A stretch of DNA of 61,603 nucleotides, the filler included, from Globobulimina sp. (taxonomy: Eukaryota), in assembly GCA_003354225.1 (NCBI GenBank). It is 25 parts of 25 records of this genome, joined end to end, with 100 filler letters (N's around TTAATTAATTAA, not from the genome) between each part and the next. Parts side by side here need not be neighbours in the genome. Positions count along the whole stretch, not along the records: positions 27,170 to 29,537 come from PIVH01007107.1; 24 more parts are not named here. One strand, written 5' to 3'. Under the pieces are notes generated by a model. It did no database searches, was not told the origin of the DNA, and saw only the letters and a list, made by a program, of their open reading frames with translations. Of this stretch, positions 2,472 through 29,537 are shown piece after piece (within the stretch, counting starts at the first letter, position 1; the number at the start of each line of letters is the position of its first letter). The translations under genes and the position numbers were made by a program.

Positions 2472-2564
2472 TGTCCTCTGCTCCTTGCACTAAAACATCA
2501 ACATTTATTTTCTTTCCTTTTTAAACCATTCCTCCGTCTCTAAAGAATTGCGCCATTACTCCAA

Positions 2565-4340
2565 ATGTTTAACAACAACAAACCAAATCGGGAATTCCAA
2601 TCCGGATTAAAGACCGAAGAGCGGCGTCGATCGCGCCAAGATGACCGGTTGCGACTTCGCAGAGTCGATCGCGAAAATAGATTACAAAAAAAACGGCAAA
2701 CCTTAGCCGATCGCAATGCAAACAGCGCCGCCACAAACAGCCAGAACCAGCACCAAAGCAACAACGCTGGCAACACTCCCCAAAAACAGCAAGAGATGAT
2801 GCGCAAACAACAAATGCTGTCACAATTACCCAACTTTGTGAAAGGATGCTATTCGGACCACCCGGCCACGCAATTCGAGTGCACCCAACGTATTCGCAAA
2901 TTGCTGTCCATCCCCAACGAGCCGCCGATATTGGCGGTGATCGATTCGGGCGTAGTGACCCGTTTGGTGCAGTTCCTGCAGTTCACGAAATTCGACCGCT
3001 TGCAGTTTGAGGCCGCCTGGGCGTTAACTAACATCGCTTCGGGCACTGCCGAGAACACCGCGGTGGTGATCCGCTACGGCGCGGTGCCTATCTTCGTCAA
3101 GCTATTGGACAGCGAGTCTATGGAAGTGCGGGAGCAGGCCATTTGGGCCTTGGGCAACATCGCCGGCGACTCTCCAGAATGCCGCAATTTGGTGTTGCAG
3201 CACGGCGGCTTGTCTTCGTTGCTGCCTTTGTTGCGGTCCTCCACCTCCTTATATTGCGAGATCACGTTGTTACGCAACGCGACCTGGACCTTATCCAACT
3301 TCTGCCGCGGCAAACCGTCGCCGGACTGGAAATATGTGCAGTTGGCCATCAAAGCGCTGTCTATCATGATCACGTCCGACGACACCGAGATATTACAAGA
3401 CTGCGCCTGGGCCTTTTCCTATTTATCCGACGTCAACGACTCGCATCAACTCAGCTCCTCGCAAGTGATGAAGGCGATCATCGCCAGCGGGTCGTTGGAT
3501 CGCTTGATCTCGTTATTGGAGCACGAGGCGTCCAATGTGCGCCACCCTTCGTTGCGCACCATCGGCAACATTGTGACCGGCTGCGACCAGCAAACGCAAC
3601 GGGTGCTCAACTTGGGCGTCTTGAAGAAATTGCATCACTTATTGTTGGGCAATGGCATCCATTCGGATCGCGGCTGCGGCGCTATCAAACGCGAGGCCTG
3701 TTGGACGATATCGAATATCACGGCGGGCTCCGCCGAGCAGATCGAAGCGGTGATTTGTAACAATTTGATACCGGTTTTGATTCAGATACTGTCGCGGGAG
3801 AGGTTTGAGATCAGTAAAGAGGCACTTTGGGCCATCTCGAATGCGACCAGCGGCGGCACGGATGTGCAGGTTCAGTTTCTGGTGAATCAGGGCGTTATTC
3901 AGCCGCTGTGCAGGTTCTTCAATCCGGCGCTGATGAAGTCGCATAAGTGCTTATTGGTGGCGTTGGAAGGCATCGATAACATATTGGCGGTGGGCGTGCG
4001 TGGCGGGACACAAATTGCGAGCAATTATTGCAGGTTTGTGGAGGAAGCGGGCGGCGTGGACTATTTGGAGGAGATTCAGGCTATGCAATCTATTCCGGAC
4101 GAGATCTATGACAAAGCGGCGCAAATCGTGAAAAGCTATTTTGGTGCACAGGATATGCCGCTGCCGAATAATAATATGAATGTTGGATCGAATAATAATG
4201 GACAGTCACAGAATAATAATCATAATGGACAGAATAATATGTTTAATTTTGGAATTGTAAATAATAACAATCATAATAATGGGCAGAATAATGATAATAA
4301 CAATGGTGGGAATGGTGCGCCGCCACAGTTTAATTTTTGA
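2565..4340 (+). CDS. KPNA: Importin subunit alpha (karyopherin alpha)
   Basis: IBB domain (RRRSRQDDRLRLRR..RE..LQKKR), ARM repeats (LQFEAAWALTNIASG, EQAIWALGNIAGDS, REACWTISNITAG) and C-terminal FNF. Intronless. Confidence 0.97.
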   Translation: MFNNNKPNREFQSGLKTEERRRSRQDDRLRLRRVDRENRLQKKRQTLADRNANSAATNSQNQHQSNNAGNTPQKQQEMMRKQQMLSQLPNFVKGCYSDHPATQFECTQRIRKLLSIPNEPPILAVIDSGVVTRLVQFLQFTKFDRLQFEAAWALTNIASGTAENTAVVIRYGAVPIFVKLLDSESMEVREQAIWALGNIAGDSPECRNLVLQHGGLSSLLPLLRSSTSLYCEITLLRNATWTLSNFCRGKPSPDWKYVQLAIKALSIMITSDDTEILQDCAWAFSYLSDVNDSHQLSSSQVMKAIIASGSLDRLISLLEHEASNVRHPSLRTIGNIVTGCDQQTQRVLNLGVLKKLHHLLLGNGIHSDRGCGAIKREACWTISNITAGSAEQIEAVICNNLIPVLIQILSRERFEISKEALWAISNATSGGTDVQVQFLVNQGVIQPLCRFFNPALMKSHKCLLVALEGIDNILAVGVRGGTQIASNYCRFVEEAGGVDYLEEIQAMQSIPDEIYDKAAQIVKSYFGAQDMPLPNNNMNVGSNNNGQSQNNNHNGQNNMFNFGIVNNNNHNNGQNNDNNNGGNGAPPQFNF

Positions 4341-6002
4341 TTGAGTTTGAAACGTTTGATATTGATGAAAGCAAAAAGTGACTAGTAGTTTTTTTTTGGA
4401 TTTTAAGTTTGAACAATTTAAAATGTATTTTCTCATTTAATTTTACACTTATTTTTCATAATTTTCATTATTTACTCTGGAGGAATCAATAGATGCAGGA
4501 GATCGTTTTTGTGCAATTGCGCTCCATCGCATGTATATGCGGCGCAAGGTTGTAAACGCCGTTTTTGTGCAAGTATCTACTTCAAATTTCCAGATGATAG
4601 CGGATTTCCTTAAGGATTCATCATGTGAATTATGGATGGCGTTATCCATAAATTGAATGCACATCTGATTGAGTATTTAATTTATGGATAATGCACATCA
4701 AAGACATTTGACGTCTGACTGTTTTCTGTTTTTCATGAAGCAATTGATGCAAGCGCTTCAACGTGGATTTCCACGTGTTCATACATTGGGGGTTATGTCA
4801 CAAAAGCGGTTCGTATTTTCTTTTAACCCCACCTCATCTCCTNNNNNNNNNNNNNNNNNNNNNNNNNNNNNNNNNNNNNNNNNNNNTTAATTAATTAANN
4901 NNNNNNNNNNNNNNNNNNNNNNNNNNNNNNNNNNNNNNNNNNATTATTTAAATAAATACAAGACATTAAATAAAGATATATATTGTTACTTATTCACTGT
5001 TGAAACTTGTTTTTTTTTGCGATTGGTACTGTTTTTTTGTTTTGATATTTCTTTTTTTTTCTTACATTGCTAAAATTCCATGCAAAAAATTCCTTAATAT
5101 GTTGGGCCATTTAATTCCAAATCCCTACTTTAGCCAATTTTTGAACATGAATAAAATGTGTTTGTTATCATAAAATGTATCCAAATCCTCCACAATATCC
5201 GACCGAGTGTCTTTGGGAAATTCTGTGCAGCCTCGCCTTGAAATAATATGTTTTCCATATCACCAAATAAACCTTTTTTTAATGCCCAAAATTCTATCAA
5301 CAAACATGAAACAAAAATAAATTAATTAACTTATTTAGCGGCAAAAATAGTTGTTGTTGCCGAATATGCCTTCTTTTTTGTGATAAAATCCAATGGAAAG
5401 GCAATTATTTTGCGTTTTCCATAAAATAATCAAAATATTTTAAAAATTATAACGTTTTTGATGGTAATAATGAAGGCGTCGTTGGACGCCGTGTTTAAGC
5501 AATATTTGACATAAAATAGTAATTTTTGTGGCATTCTTGATATAATTCACCATATTCTAATAAATTATTTATATTTGAAGCAGTTGGTGGTGTTTTAATC
5601 GATGCGTTTTCTTTTGTTTGTTTCTTTAAAATATTTAAAAATTTACAATCCGTTTTATTTTAATATGTTTTATATAATTATTAATATGCAAATAATGCCT
5701 TGTAATTGATAATAATTTTAATGCAAAATACTTATAATTTGTTAAAAACGATCCAATGCCATATAATTTGAGCTTTTTTATTTGTTTTAAACCAATCTTT
5801 ACATATAAAAATTGATAGAATTGCGTATCAATACGGCGTTGTTTAATATGTGCGATTTTTATATTAATGTCCATGTTTGAATGTAATTCGTTGATATTGA
5901 ACATAATGATGCCATTAATTGAATCTACTGTGTTTGTGTAGTGTCATGTTGCTGGTGACATGAATAAATCGTTTACAAAAAGTTTACAAAAAAAGATTTG
6001 AA

Positions 6003-17292: not shown

Positions 17293-19662
17293 CAAAGCAA
17301 AACATTTGCAAACAACGCAAACAACAAAAAGAACAAAGAAAAACAGAAAAAAGTGGCAAAAAATGGCAAATATTCGGCAGAATGGATCCGCGAAAAGGCG
17401 CAACATATCGCAATGATGAAATTGCAGGTAATTTGTATAAATTTTGTGTTTGTAAATAATATAACTAACAAATTTACAGTTTTGCCATCACGAAAATGCG
17501 GATTTAATGGATGTCGAAACATTGACATTGCAAATATTGGAATTGATCCACAACCCGCAATTTTCGGATATTTCCTTACAATCACAATTTACGGATTTAT
17601 TAGGCATCGATTCCTTTGATTTGATCACCGAATTAATACGAAACAGATCGGTTATTATAAAGTCGACGTCGCGATTTATGAATTATAAGCAAATGAAAAG
17701 CAACAAAAACATTGCAATTCCACAACAACGCAGCACAGAAAGCGGCGGACCGTTTGGAGCCAGTTTTAGCATCAAAACAGAGTCACAATGCAAAGCCGAC
17801 AAACACCGCAACAAAAAGAACAAGAAAAAAAACAAGAAATCCGGCCAAAGGAAAAAGGCGGCGCAGCACAGAAAAGATGAGGTCATAAACACAAAAAACC
17901 GGCAACACGAAAATTATAAACGGACCATGAAATTAATGGGTTACACTCCGAAAAATAGCACGACAGACTCGGACAAACAAAGCTTGCCATCCAACACAAC
18001 CACCACCACTCACAAAATGGCCACGGGGACTTGGCAGGAAATACATATTCCGGCGCCGGACCAAAAGGTATTGGACGGCATTAAGCAGCAAAAAGTGGTG
18101 AAGATAGCGCAGTGTTTCCCTGTCTGGGCACAATTAGCTTTTGTCCCGTTTGGCATCGACGAGTTGAATCCGATGCAGTCGCAGTGCTTCGAGAAGGCCT
18201 TCCATTCCAATGTCAATCTATTAATATGTGCGCCGACGGGAGCGGGCAAAACGAACGTTGCCATCATAGCGACTCTGCGCGAAATCGGACTGAATCTGAA
18301 AAACGGAGTGCTGGCCAAAGCGGACAAATTCAAAATAATTTACGTGGCTCCGATGAAGGCGTTGGCGCAGGAAATTGTGCGCAAATTCGGCACTCGATTG
18401 AAGTGCTTAGGCATTGTTTGTAGAGAGCTGACCGGCGATATGCAATTAACAAAGAGCGAAATCGCAGAGACGCATATTATTGTCACGACGCCGGAGAAAT
18501 GGGACATAATCACGCGGAAATCCGACGAGGTGGTCAAGATCGTAAAGTTACTGATTTTGGACGAAGTGCATTTGTTGCAAGACGACCGAGGCAGTGTCAT
18601 CGAGGCCATTGTGGCGCGGACAACGCGTTTGGTGGAATCCGCGCAAACAATGATACGCATCGTCGGATTGTCGGCGACTTTGCCAAATTACATCGACGTG
18701 GCGGCCTTTTTGAAGGCGGAGAACGGAGTGTGTTATTTCGACGATTCTTACCGCCCCGTCCCATTAAGCAAGGCCTTTATCGGCGTGGCGGACGCCAACA
18801 ACCTGCGAGCGAGGAATATGATGAATGAGGTCTGTTTCCTCAAAGTGGAGAAAGCAGTGATGGCGGGACACCAAGTTATGGTTTTTGTGCATTCGCGAAA
18901 AGACACGCTGCGAACTGCGCAATTTCTGCGCGAAAAGTTCCAGGAACACGATGAGTGCCAATATGTCGATCCAGATAAGACTGTCCACGGCGTGCAGTTG
19001 GACAAAATCGCCAAGAAATCGAGAGTGCCCTCGGAATTGTTCCATTTATTGATCCATGGCTTCGGCACTCACCACGCCGGCATGCGGCGGGAGAACCGGC
19101 GCGTTGTGGAGCAGGCGTTTCTGAGCGGAGTGGTGTCTGTGCTGTGCTGCACTGCGACGCTTGCGTGGGGCGTAAATTTGCCGGCTCACACCGTCATCAT
19201 TAAAGGCACCACCATCTACGACACCAAACGCGGCGGTTTCGTCGACGTCTCCATATTGGACGTCATGCAAATATTTGGGCGAGCGGGGCGGCCGCAATTC
19301 GACAAAGTGGGCGGCGGCGAAGCCTTTGTCATTACACAGCAAAAGAGGTTAAGGCATTTTGTGTCGGCCATGACCAATTCGGTGCCGATTGAGTCGAAGT
19401 TCCATACGGATTTAGCCAACCATTTGAATGCGGAGATCGTGCTGGGTTCAGTCACAAATATGACGGAAGCCATCCAGTGGCTGCAATATACGTATTTGTA
19501 CGTTCGATTAATTCGCTCTCCCTCCAAATACATCGACACCACCTCCGACTTCTTCACCGCGTATCGCAACGACCCGTTTTTCACTGCAAAGCTGCGCGAA
19601 ATGTTGGAAGAGGCCGCCGTGGAATTGGCCAAAATGAAGATGTCCCGCTTTGACAGCGGCGA
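17293..19662 (+). CDS. ASCC3: Ski2-like helicase ASCC3/Slh1 (internal fragment; intron 17428-17479)
   Basis: LLICAPTGAGKT, YVAPMKALAQE, RELTGDMQL, DEVH and KRGGFVDVSILDVMQIFGRAGRPQFD (ASCC3-type rather than Brr2). The intron has an ACTAAC branch site. Confidence 0.88.
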
Positions 19663-27169: not shown

Positions 27170-29140
27170 GGCAACAAACAGCATAGTGAACCGACAGAAA
27201 CACCACAAACAGACAAAGACATTGCAACTGTTACCCAATCAAAAAAACGGGATAATGCAAATTCACCATGGGTTTCTGGTGTACCAAGTCGTGAAAGACG
27301 GTTAAGAAAGGAGATGAAAGGTTGGAATACGTACTACGATGATGATGAGAAATCTAAACAATTTATAAAAAATACCACATTGGTTCATGTTAAGCATAAT
27401 ACATTCAAATCCACAATGAAAGGTCCTTTGAAAACACCCTACGAAGCAGGCATATACATCCTAAACATTGAATTCCCGCAAGATTATCCATTTAAACCTC
27501 CAAGGATAAAATTTCAAAACCCACCATTTTGCTGTAATGTTTATGGAAACGAAAAATTCGACAAAAGCTTAGGCAGCAATACCAACGAAAAGGACAATGA
27601 AGAGAAAACTGAACCAGATGCAAATTTTGGTTCATTTTCATTGTACATTTTAAGAGATAGATGGTCTCCGGCACTCACTATCACAAAGGTATTGCAACGG
27701 ATATATATAGACCTATTTTTCGAATGTGGTTATATTGACGAGAGTAGTAATGTTGATCCAAAATTGGAATACAGAAAGCAATTATTTGCAAACGATTTTA
27801 GTTTATTTCTTTACAAAGCATCATTATATAACGAAATTTATGCAAATGGTGTAGCTGCGACGTACTTTATTAATCCGCAAATAACTGACACAGAATATGA
27901 ATCATGTATTTCCATCATTGTCTCAATCTGTTCACAAAAATATAGTTTACCATCTTCCTTAATTCACAATTGTCTGATTCAATATTATGGAGTGCAGAGA
28001 GCATATTGTGGTCTAAGTCAATATTTTAATTACAATAAATTTCAGATTACAAAAGTTGCAAAATCAATTCAAGAAAAGCCTGAACCAGCTGCTCCACAAA
28101 CAATTAGTTCCCATATTCACGCCCATCCAGGATCTCGTGGTGCTGTTGGGTTTGGTGGATGTAGCATGCAGATATTCATTAAAACATTGGCTGGGAAGAC
28201 AATCACTTTGGATGTAGAGGCAAATGATACAATTCAAAATGTTAAAGCAAAACTCCAGGATCGCGAAGGCATTCCACCTGAACAAATGCGATTAATTTTT
28301 GCTGGGAAACAGTTGGAAGATGGGAGAACTTTAAGCGATTATATGATACAAAAAGAATCGACATTACATTTGGTGTTAAGATTAAGAGGCGAAGGAAACA
28401 TTGCTATTCAAACAAAACATGGTTCTTTTACTTTGAATGACGATGATATTATTGGTGATATTCATAAAATAATGTTGGAAAAATGTTCAGTTTCAAAAAT
28501 GAAATTTAAAGCAAATTATTCTTTTAAACAGATTGGAGTTAATTATGAGGCTTTGAATAACCTGAAATATTTACATAAGAAAGCACAGATATTTATGTGT
28601 TCAAATGTTATTACCAATTTTGATGCAGTTTGCTCATCGATTATTGAACATTGTATTGCATACTCACGACTTACAAATATTGAATGGACAGATTTTTCGT
28701 TGACTGAGTTAGGTTTAGATTGTGTGGTGTTGGATTGGTGTAAAATATTATTTGAATCGAATATTTTCAAAGATAAAATGAAAGAATTTAATGTTTCCAA
28801 ATTGAAAATAAAAGGGAGTGTATTACATGAATATGCAGATAATGTGATAAATGAAAATATTTGTGGCTTGAAGAAACATTATAAAAATGTTAAAATTGGT
28901 ATAAAAGGAGATGTTAATGGAGATCATAAAGATGGAAGTGATATGACAATTGATTTATGTCTAGGTAAAGATTTTAAAGGTGGTTCAATTAATTTTAAGC
29001 TAAGTGAAAACGAATTAGTTCAACTTAAAAATCGTCATAAAGGACAATGTTTATTTTTTGATGGAGATGTTATTCATAATGTTACACCCATTACAAATGG
29101 ACATAGAGTTCAGTTGGTTGTATTTTGTACATTTGATTGA
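27170..29140 (+). CDS. Fusion protein: UBC/E2-like domain (catalytic Cys replaced by Ser) + ubiquitin domain + 2OG-Fe(II) dioxygenase; 5'-truncated
   Basis: [38 protein letters not shown], then [16 protein letters not shown] (28166-28393), then [18 protein letters not shown]. Confidence 0.88.
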
Positions 29141-29273
29141 TTTAATGACTTCGAAACAACTGTTTAATACAAACATAAAACCATTTCTTGGACCACTGGT
29201 AGTTTTTCATTTTTTAAGTGGGTTTTTCTTGGTGAGTTCGTCAACATCTTTGGTGTATATATAAAAAACAAAA

Positions 29274-29537
29274 ATGAAACCACGCAAATCAATGATTAGT
29301 AAAAAAAAGAAGAAATCACAAAAAGAGATAGTACGAGAAAATGTATATTTTGATGAAGAATTAGAGCCCGTAGAAGTTCAAATGATTCCCGAAGATCAAT
29401 TAGATTTAAATGATGCAGAATTAGATGAAGAATTTACAAAAACATTGACCTGTTTAGATCCAAATCAAACATCAAAGATCACACATTTTAATTTTAAAAA
29501 AGGTGAATTTGAATCACGTCCAAATAATCAACATATT
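29274..29537 (+). CDS. DNAI1: Axonemal dynein intermediate chain 1, N-terminal fragment
   Basis: PEDQLDLNDAELDEEFTKTLTCLDPN...ITHFNFKKGEF resembles the DNAI1/IC78 segment [25 protein letters not shown]. Confidence 0.72.

Follow-up and report, generated by a model that had tools for sequence, protein, structure and literature searches.

A foraminiferal open reading frame that joins an E2 variant, an internal ubiquitin and a predicted 2-oxoglutarate oxygenase related to OGFOD2

The stretch of DNA analysed here (the window, 61,603 bases from Globobulimina sp.) consists of 25 unrelated contigs, placed in order of their length (2365-2371 bp) and separated by linkers of the form N...TTAATTAATTAA...N. 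Because the window is made of separate contigs joined end to end, neighbours across the linkers carry no meaning, and the genuine context of the fusion gene described here is only the contig at 27170-29537 (2368 bp, from a fragmented assembly). On its plus strand this contig carries an open reading frame (ORF) of 656 codons followed by TGA (27170-29140) and open at the 5' end, at the contig edge; at the base composition of the window, a stop-free frame of this length has a probability of about 1e-25. The frame encodes a variant of a ubiquitin-conjugating enzyme (E2), a middle region, a ubiquitin and a C-terminal domain of the 2-oxoglutarate (2OG)/Fe(II) oxygenase type (the C-domain). An earlier account drawn from the DNA by eye (the sequence-only reading) had described one uninterrupted ORF with three domains, and coordinates, codons and Pfam matches put every element that it listed in the place given.

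The sequence-only reading did not recognise this architecture, which turns out not to be unique to the window: it is that of a small family in which every named member is foraminiferal. With the C-terminal part as query, a word-indexed search returned P0002 (67%) and P0003 (41%), both with ubiquitin and the same domain, and a search with the N-terminal part returned four close relatives, P0004, P0005, P0006 and P0007. The full order of E2-like domain, middle region, ubiquitin and C-domain is present at about 40% identity in P0006 (748 aa) and P0007 (640 aa); P0004 and P0005 end inside or just past ubiquitin. Since the records of P0004 and of the fragment P0029 both name a 9304-bp contig, the two are probably pieces of one gene. 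A profile built from four C-domains, run against 1.84 billion representatives, gave 318 matches at E<=1e-3, 26 at E<=1e-10 and 8 at E<=1e-30. In a Pfam scan of the ten top full-domain matches, ubiquitin lay directly upstream in nine, and three of the ten (P0021, P0024 and P0030) carried UQ_con as well; the E2 part was found in eight family members. By these domain assignments, the conserved unit is ubiquitin plus hydroxylase, with variable N-terminal parts. Species labels came with seven of 20 exact-sequence look-ups, all foraminiferal (Nonionella stella three times, Bolivina argentea and Reticulomyxa filosa twice each), the remaining 13 being metagenome or ENA records; the two Reticulomyxa entries are publicly named 'ubiquitin' and 'Fe2OG dioxygenase domain-containing protein'. 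P0109 (572 aa) shows a sub-threshold RanBP2-type zinc finger, then ubiquitin (RLRGG), then the start of the C-domain.

The E2-like domain (residues 40-235, 27287-27874, plus strand) has the ubiquitin-conjugating (UBC) fold of the Ubc4/5 (UBE2D/E) type. UQ_con matches it with E 2.4e-19 and 69.8 bits against a cut-off of 27, its top PDB match by phmmer is Ubc4/UBE2D (E 3e-15), and a MAFFT alignment with canonical E2s and COP10 shows the UBC fold complete from helix 1 to the C-terminal helices. As the sequence-only reading had it, the active site is altered: phmmer against the PDB sets FCCN of the query under YHPN and GSFSL under GSICL. Cys121-Cys122-Asn123 (TGC, TGT and AAT; 27530-27538, plus strand) thus replaces HPN with the Asn kept, and Ser157 (TCA, two changes from TGY; 27638-27640, plus strand) stands at the catalytic Cys position in alignment with Ubc4 and UBE2D-type E2s. 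An insertion separates the HPN loop from the active-site strand; its presence had been noted correctly, but its length is 26 residues rather than about 20 (residues 127-152, 27548-27625, plus strand), and its beginning, GNE.FDK.LG, is conserved. A further insertion follows helix 1, and the NPxDP loop is replaced by a Cys-Gly loop, FFECGY (residues 183-185, 27716-27724), which adjoins the active site. The motifs YPFKPP and WSPALTI, which we take to be contact residues for ubiquitin ligases (E3s) of the RING type, are intact. Lacking both the Cys of G-x-I-C-L and the HPN motif of active E2s, the domain has the defining feature of a ubiquitin E2 variant (UEV), a UBC fold without the catalytic Cys. 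The UEV-like module proposed earlier stands in this sense, with a Ser that P0004-P0007 and P0021 share.

Across the family, Ser occupies the catalytic position in six of the eight E2-bearing members (the window, P0004, P0005, P0006, P0007 and P0021). CCN is common to P0004-P0007, while P0021 reads HCN, P0024 SGN and P0030 TGN, the Asn being invariant in all eight. The 26-residue insertion occurs in the window, P0004, P0005, P0006 and P0007 and not in P0021, P0024 or P0030, and Cys-Gly stands in place of the NPxDP loop in five of seven aligned members (the window, P0004, P0007, P0024 and P0030). With E2-part identities of 42-68% between the window and P0004-P0007, a Ser common to five relatives and CCN common to four, the domain is not the product of recent decay. 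P0021, whose E2 is near-canonical (UQ_con E 7.6e-43; HCN, Ser and no insertion), lies far from the window clade in the C-domain tree, so that the loss of Cys looks independent, or else ancient.

The CCN motif was compared with those of other E2s through a search among shorter proteins, in which the best 120 of 222 matches are of the UBE2D/E type or COP10 (best E 1e-18). By pattern, the active Cys is present in 85 of these 120, many of which read HCN and not HPN, and plant COP10 rows combine HCN with Ser or another non-Cys residue at the active site. Since HCN is common in Cys-bearing UBE2D/E-type E2s and in COP10, there is nothing unusual about the second Cys of CCN; only the change of His to Cys is special, and Pro to Cys alone is not disabling. 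The earlier suggestion that catalysis had moved to the Cys pair is weakened accordingly. No stand-alone short E2 variant with CCN was found among the matches listed. PMC7215765 classes E2 relatives that lack the catalytic Cys as inactive variants, with COP10 as an accepted E2 variant. A further natural Cys-to-Ser E2 came up in P0008 (474 aa), an unrelated protein of E2 and RWD domains, with HPN intact and Ser at the catalytic position (GYISLEFL).

The middle region (residues 236-328, 27875-28153, plus strand) comprises a conserved module (about 236-300) and a variable linker. Matches by blastp reach P0004-P0007 (E 1e-10 to 2e-29), P0024 (4e-7) and P0030 (9e-4), and residues 236-332 are common to the window and these six proteins. 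The module is probably helical, with helices at 240-257 and 262-279 in a low-confidence model. Beyond chance-level matches, no Pfam family was found for this region in any of six members at E<=10, and the ESM Atlas gave no usable match for it. An F-box, considered on account of the motif K-Y-S-L-P-x-x-L-I, was rejected, as none of the six regions matched F-box models at E<=10.

The ubiquitin domain (residues 333-408, 28166-28393, plus strand) is near-canonical, in line with the earlier description, with a Pfam E of 2e-28, 84-85% identity to solved ubiquitins and template-modelling (TM) scores of 0.94-0.98. It keeps L8, I44, K48, K63, H68, V70 and R72 and is altered at K33R, Q41M and N60M. Its tail reads RLRGE-G (G407, GGC; E408, GAA, one change from GGA) and has no C-terminal Gly-Gly that processing could expose, as a conjugatable ubiquitin requires. 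Over 19 family rows, the tails are GG in nine, AG in five, GE in three, AN in one and GN in one. Because GE is confined to the window and its nearest clade (P0002 and P0029), resistance to cleavage would be a state of this lineage and not a trait of the family; the tag that the sequence-only reading called non-conjugatable holds for the window and not family-wide. The recognition surface behaves differently from the tail: K48, H68, V70 and R72 never vary over the 19 rows, nor does I44 in the 18 that include it. Position 29 varies (K, L, Y, H, E and M). A preserved recognition surface combined with a freely decaying tail fits an integral domain and not a cleaved precursor, and N60M, a change specific to the family, speaks against steady gene conversion from polyubiquitin.

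Directly before Met333 lie Gly329-Gly330-Cys331-Ser332 (28154-28165, plus strand), which we interpret as the Gly-Gly of an upstream ubiquitin monomer followed by a rhizarian junction insertion. Insertions of one or two residues at the monomer junctions of polyubiquitin are described for Rhizaria in PMC3014934. The relatives have RLCGG-S-MQIF (P0006) and RLAGG-S-MQLF (P0021) at this junction, and P0002 has HGG-A-FMIHV following a divergent ubiquitin-like domain. This relic with its rhizarian insertion argues that the ubiquitin derives from a rhizarian polyubiquitin gene; the upstream monomer of the window appears to have decayed to the relic, and family members with Gly-Gly tails may still be processed.

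The C-domain (residues 409-656, 28394-29137, plus strand) comprises a beta-hairpin, a helical part and a double-stranded beta-helix. H586-K-D588 (28925-28933, plus strand; CAT for H586, GAT for D588) supplies the first two iron ligands, and the segment at 29075-29107 (plus strand) runs from the third, H636 (CAT), to R646 (AGA), ten residues on and predicted to bind the C5-carboxylate of 2OG, a spacing that we take to be that of prolyl and lysyl hydroxylases. In an alignment of 31 rows, H586, D588, H636 and R646 each reach a conservation of at least 90%; together with the model fold, this bears out the dioxygenase with HKD and a complete H...R set that had been read from the sequence. A model of ubiquitin plus C-domain from the 31-row alignment reached a predicted local distance difference test (pLDDT) of 88.8 and a predicted TM score (pTM) of 0.72. 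With this model, the list returned by Foldseek against the PDB was filled by ubiquitin chains. In a wide PDB search with VIA-align, the C-domain matched best a mimivirus protein (6ax6_A; Z 17.6, root-mean-square deviation (rmsd) 2.4, 166 aligned residues, 19% identity), followed by human LH3 (8zgc_A; Z 16.9, rmsd 2.5, 176 aligned); further matches were OGFOD1 (Z 13.8), prolyl 4-hydroxylases (P4H; 12.6-13.6) and PHD2 (12.5). Lysyl hydroxylases are thus the top fold match, at 16-19% identity, and Lys specificity is not readable from the fold. The ESM Atlas gave only leads below 0.9 for the C-domain, to 2OG/P4H clusters.

The nearest sequence relatives of the C-domain are OGFOD2-like. Comparison by hhalign with 18 OGFOD2-like proteins gave 98.8% probability (E 6.8e-17, 148 columns), and among 123 more distant profile matches PF25238 occurs in 65, PF13640 in 28 and ankyrin repeats in 13. 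The window protein itself has no match to PF25238, the OGFOD2-like family, at E<=1. From the fold matches, the OGFOD2-like profile matches and hhalign, we place the C-domain in the prolyl/lysyl-hydroxylase clade of 2OG oxygenases that modify proteins, apparently as a divergent or sister branch next to OGFOD2 and not as a member of its Pfam model. Other fusions were noted for domains of this kind: OGFOD2-like and 2OG oxygenase domains are joined to tubulin in P0047 (814 aa) and P0048 (905 aa), with a full tubulin match in the former and only a weak fragment, beside a pinin/SDK/memA region, in the latter, and P0084 (877 aa) and P0086 (561 aa) are oxygenase-domain relatives with an F-box. A predicted complex of the ubiquitin domain with the C-domain, run without alignments, scored 0.03 against a mark of 0.34.

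The integrity of the ORF was assessed with assembled contigs of four runs (X1, X2, X6 and X7) from four studies; since one run may be the source of the window's assembly, at most three of the studies supporting contiguity are independent. None of the runs that contain the stretch is listed as RNA; two may be. Contigs covering 27805-28385 (X1), 27773-28248 (X2) and 27754-28250 (X6) cross the junction into ubiquitin (28166), and others covering 28342-29311 (X2), 28223-28942 (X6) and 28204-28724 (X7) cross the junction out of it (28393), which an X1 contig (28363-28881) also just bridges. None of the contigs of the four runs was reported to have a joint at the domain junctions, and the chimeric assembly that had been a concern at the outset is not seen. 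Differences between strains within the ORF are synonymous in 14 of 25 cases and non-synonymous in 11 (among 40 listed of 88); they favour synonymous sites, indicating purifying selection. Two of the substitutions in other runs are Y159D (27644), which brings back the Asp of canonical E2s two residues after the active-site position, and D585Y (28922), which brings back the family consensus GYH.D. The ORF is intact, selected, single and not a chimera. Run X1 shows several small insertions at 27334-27340, in a variable stretch after helix 1, and X6 and X7 an in-frame CAA insertion at 28601. The stretch 28197-28354 draws contigs with a summed word depth of up to 208,435 at a likeness of at least 90%, presumably from canonical ubiquitin genes of the same samples.

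The protein begins with an N-terminal extension (residues 1-39, 27170-27286, plus strand; alignment with relatives) that opens with GNKQHS. The relatives start with MGN(E/A)(Q/D)S, and the ORF therefore probably misses only its Met codon; as the frame is open where the contig begins at 27170, the ATG at 27314 is more likely internal than the start. This N-terminus may be a candidate N-myristoylation signal, whose motif prefers Ser or Thr at the position where the window has His. The next gene starts 133 nt past the stop (29274-29537, plus strand) and has a match to the N-terminal end of axonemal dynein intermediate chain 1 (E 6e-10); two runs have contigs beginning at 29263, one of them beside an adapter, a hint that a separate transcript may start here. 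Other contigs of the window encode an importin-alpha, a Brr2-type helicase and a tRNA-intron endonuclease, and long intron-free ORFs are common among them; the contigs at 2472-4842 and 17293-19662, which code for the importin-alpha and the Brr2-type helicase, have 47% G+C against about 31% elsewhere. An Rfam search of the window gave no matches, and a scan for bacterial promoters and terminators gave 14 sites against 13.1 expected, which is irrelevant for a eukaryote.

These features lead to the hypothesis, to which we give a probability of about one half, that the E2 variant and the ubiquitin are built-in adaptors that hold the hydroxylase on the ubiquitin machinery, where it would hydroxylate Lys or Pro using O2. 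Mechanistically, the product would be a single uncleaved polypeptide with four working parts: E2 variant, helical spacer, integral ubiquitin and 2OG/Fe(II) hydroxylase. The E2 variant would resemble COP10, keeping the UBC fold and the putative E3-contact residues, and since its catalytic Cys is Ser157, a ubiquitin thioester could not form on it. The conserved and probably helical spacer would join it to a polyubiquitin-derived ubiquitin in which the I44, H68 and V70 surface and K48 are intact and the G76E tail would block both removal by deubiquitinases and conjugation. Both ubiquitin-system modules would dock the hydroxylase onto E3s, ubiquitin-charged E2s (E2~Ub) and ubiquitin receptors, and the docked enzyme would in turn use O2 to hydroxylate the side chain of a Lys or Pro.

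Several points weigh against this hypothesis. The Pfam models for 2OG oxygenases stay under their cut-offs (2OG-FeII_Oxy_3 at 16.5 against 27 bits, 2OG-Fe_Oxy_2 at 14.8 against 23.1), and the catalytic activity of the C-domain, which looks competent with its complete H-D-H-R set, is predicted. Non-covalent binding of ubiquitin, an E2 or an E3 by the E2-like domain is putative. The whole-protein AlphaFold model, from seven sequences, has a pLDDT of 45.9, with E2 and middle parts that are unusable, and the start codon is off the contig. The catalytic Cys is retained in P0024 and P0030, and Gly-Gly in nine of 19 relatives. The ancestor was probably an active E2, and ancestrally the protein may have undergone cleavage or conjugated ubiquitin; the form in the window could be derived, its role changed or reduced. 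The sequence-only reading had named orthologues with Cys and Gly-Gly as a sign of recent decay; relatives with Cys and relatives with Gly-Gly exist, but with Ser shared by five relatives the form in the window is not recent decay.

Among the alternatives, one that we hold unlikely takes the ubiquitin as a degron of the ubiquitin-fusion-degradation type, a pathway that acts on uncleavable ubiquitin fusions. Chains built on K48 or K29 would make the enzyme short-lived and let its level track proteasome capacity, a role compatible with that of adaptors. The invariance of K48 in all 19 rows next to a tail that is dead in ten of them agrees with this idea; the variation at position 29 does not, and K48 is also part of the general recognition surface.

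A second alternative holds that the ubiquitin is a removable pro-part, like that of the fusions of ubiquitin to ribosomal proteins, with deubiquitinases cutting after it to free the hydroxylase from the E2-variant-ubiquitin part, so that the fusion would serve only co-expression or folding. Nine of 19 members indeed run from Gly-Gly directly into the hydroxylase domain (RLRGG-D/E/Q...), and the GG-(C)S-MQIF relic, together with the tandem ubiquitin-like and ubiquitin domains of P0006, P0021 and P0002, marks descent from polyubiquitin, whose products are normally processed. Cleavage is thus plausible for the relatives with Gly-Gly, but for the window protein we consider it improbable: its tail, like those of P0002 and P0029, reads RLRGE, and Gly-Gly is lost in ten of 19 members that nevertheless all keep K48, H68, V70, R72 and, where covered, I44. 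Ubiquitin fusions are routinely made resistant to cleavage by replacing G76.

The E2-like domain might also still conjugate ubiquitin, through an oxyester on Ser157, through Cys121 or Cys122, or through Cys186, a conserved residue of the loop that stands in for NPxDP. Engineered E2s with Ser for Cys can carry ubiquitin as an oxyester, all eight members retain the Asn of HPN, Ser and no random residue recurs in six of them, and the Cys-Gly of the replaced loop recurs in P0004, P0007, P0024 and P0030. On the other side, COP10 has the same pattern of HCN and Ser, Cys at the Pro position is common in active E2s and so gives no sign of a relocated nucleophile, and a 26-residue insertion adjoins the active site. 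Natural E2 relatives without Cys are, moreover, classed as inactive in PMC7215765. Overall, we find continued conjugation hard to credit. An artefact, either a chimera formed through highly repeated ubiquitin sequence or a decaying pseudogene, can be dismissed: the contig is only 2368 bp in a fragmented assembly and its ubiquitin stretch pulls in very deep canonical-ubiquitin contigs, but both junctions are spanned without joints in four runs from four studies, the same three-domain order recurs in P0006, P0007, P0021, P0024 and P0030, the frame is open over 656 codons, and strain differences are skewed to synonymous sites.

Each domain is known in kind, and the combination is undescribed in the literature searched: outside subscription journals and supplements, no description was found of E2 + ubiquitin + 2OG oxygenase fusions or of ubiquitin + OGFOD2-like fusions, in agreement with the sequence-only reading, to which the architecture was unfamiliar. 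Among the papers listed for OGFOD2, no functional study of the enzyme was found. In the closest divergent relatives of OGFOD2 a fused ubiquitin is almost always present and an E2 or E2 variant is frequent, which offers a lead to substrates in the ubiquitin system and hints that the OGFOD2 enzyme family works on that system. Carrying the adaptor hypothesis further, the fusion might be a one-polypeptide oxygen switch of Foraminifera, with O2-dependent hydroxylation of ubiquitin or of a bound E2 or E3 component that the protein would keep in position by its own E2-variant and ubiquitin domains, and by a domain-fusion (Rosetta-stone) argument the orphan OGFOD2 of animals might act likewise on the ubiquitin system; we regard this extension as speculative and rather doubtful. 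If true, oxygen would tune ubiquitylation directly. The sediments in which Bolivina argentea and Nonionella stella live are poor in oxygen, and there an O2-dependent enzyme wired to ubiquitin is biologically suggestive. The family also offers a natural E2 series, from Cys (P0024, P0030) through Ser without insertion (P0021) to Ser with CCN and insertion (the window), that informs the origin of E2 variants, and a ubiquitin of polyubiquitin descent that would have turned from cleavable to integral several times (GG, AG, GE, AN and GN tails).

Compared with known systems, the C-domain is homologous to the OGFOD2 family (PF25238 + PF13640) over the helical part and the double-stranded beta-helix, and both share the H-x-D...H...R set and the core SD.T.D/N.CLG..F.GG.L.F. 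The identity is only about 20%, PF25238 fails to match the window, and OGFOD2-like proteins commonly carry ankyrin repeats (13 of the 123 distant matches) where the window has ubiquitin upstream. The closest solved folds, those of the lysyl hydroxylases (mimivirus L230, 6ax6; human LH3/PLOD3, 8zgc), belong to proteins with 16-19% identity and with glycosyltransferase domains that the window lacks.

With COP10 and the UEVs (Mms2/Uev1 and Tsg101), the E2-like domain shares a UBC fold without the catalytic Cys. By motif likeness, COP10 appears to be its closest known analogue, having a UBE2D/E-type origin, a Cys in place of the Pro of HPN and an active-site Ser; unlike COP10, the window has lost the His as well (CCN) and has insertions before the active-site strand and after helix 1, and neither COP10 nor the UEVs are fused in cis to ubiquitin and an oxygenase. 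Ubiquitin-eL40, ubiquitin-eS31 and polyubiquitin also have a near-canonical ubiquitin directly followed by another protein, whereas in the window the ubiquitin is internal, its tail is RLRGE and its partner is an enzyme, not a ribosomal protein. In the oxygen-sensing systems PHD-HIF-VHL of animals and PhyA-Skp1 of Dictyostelium and Toxoplasma, a 2OG oxygenase of the prolyl-hydroxylase clade is tied to ubiquitin ligation, and PHD2 is itself among the fold matches of the C-domain (Z 12.5). There, hydroxylase and ubiquitin machinery reside on different proteins, whereas the protein of the window unites them in a covalent fusion.

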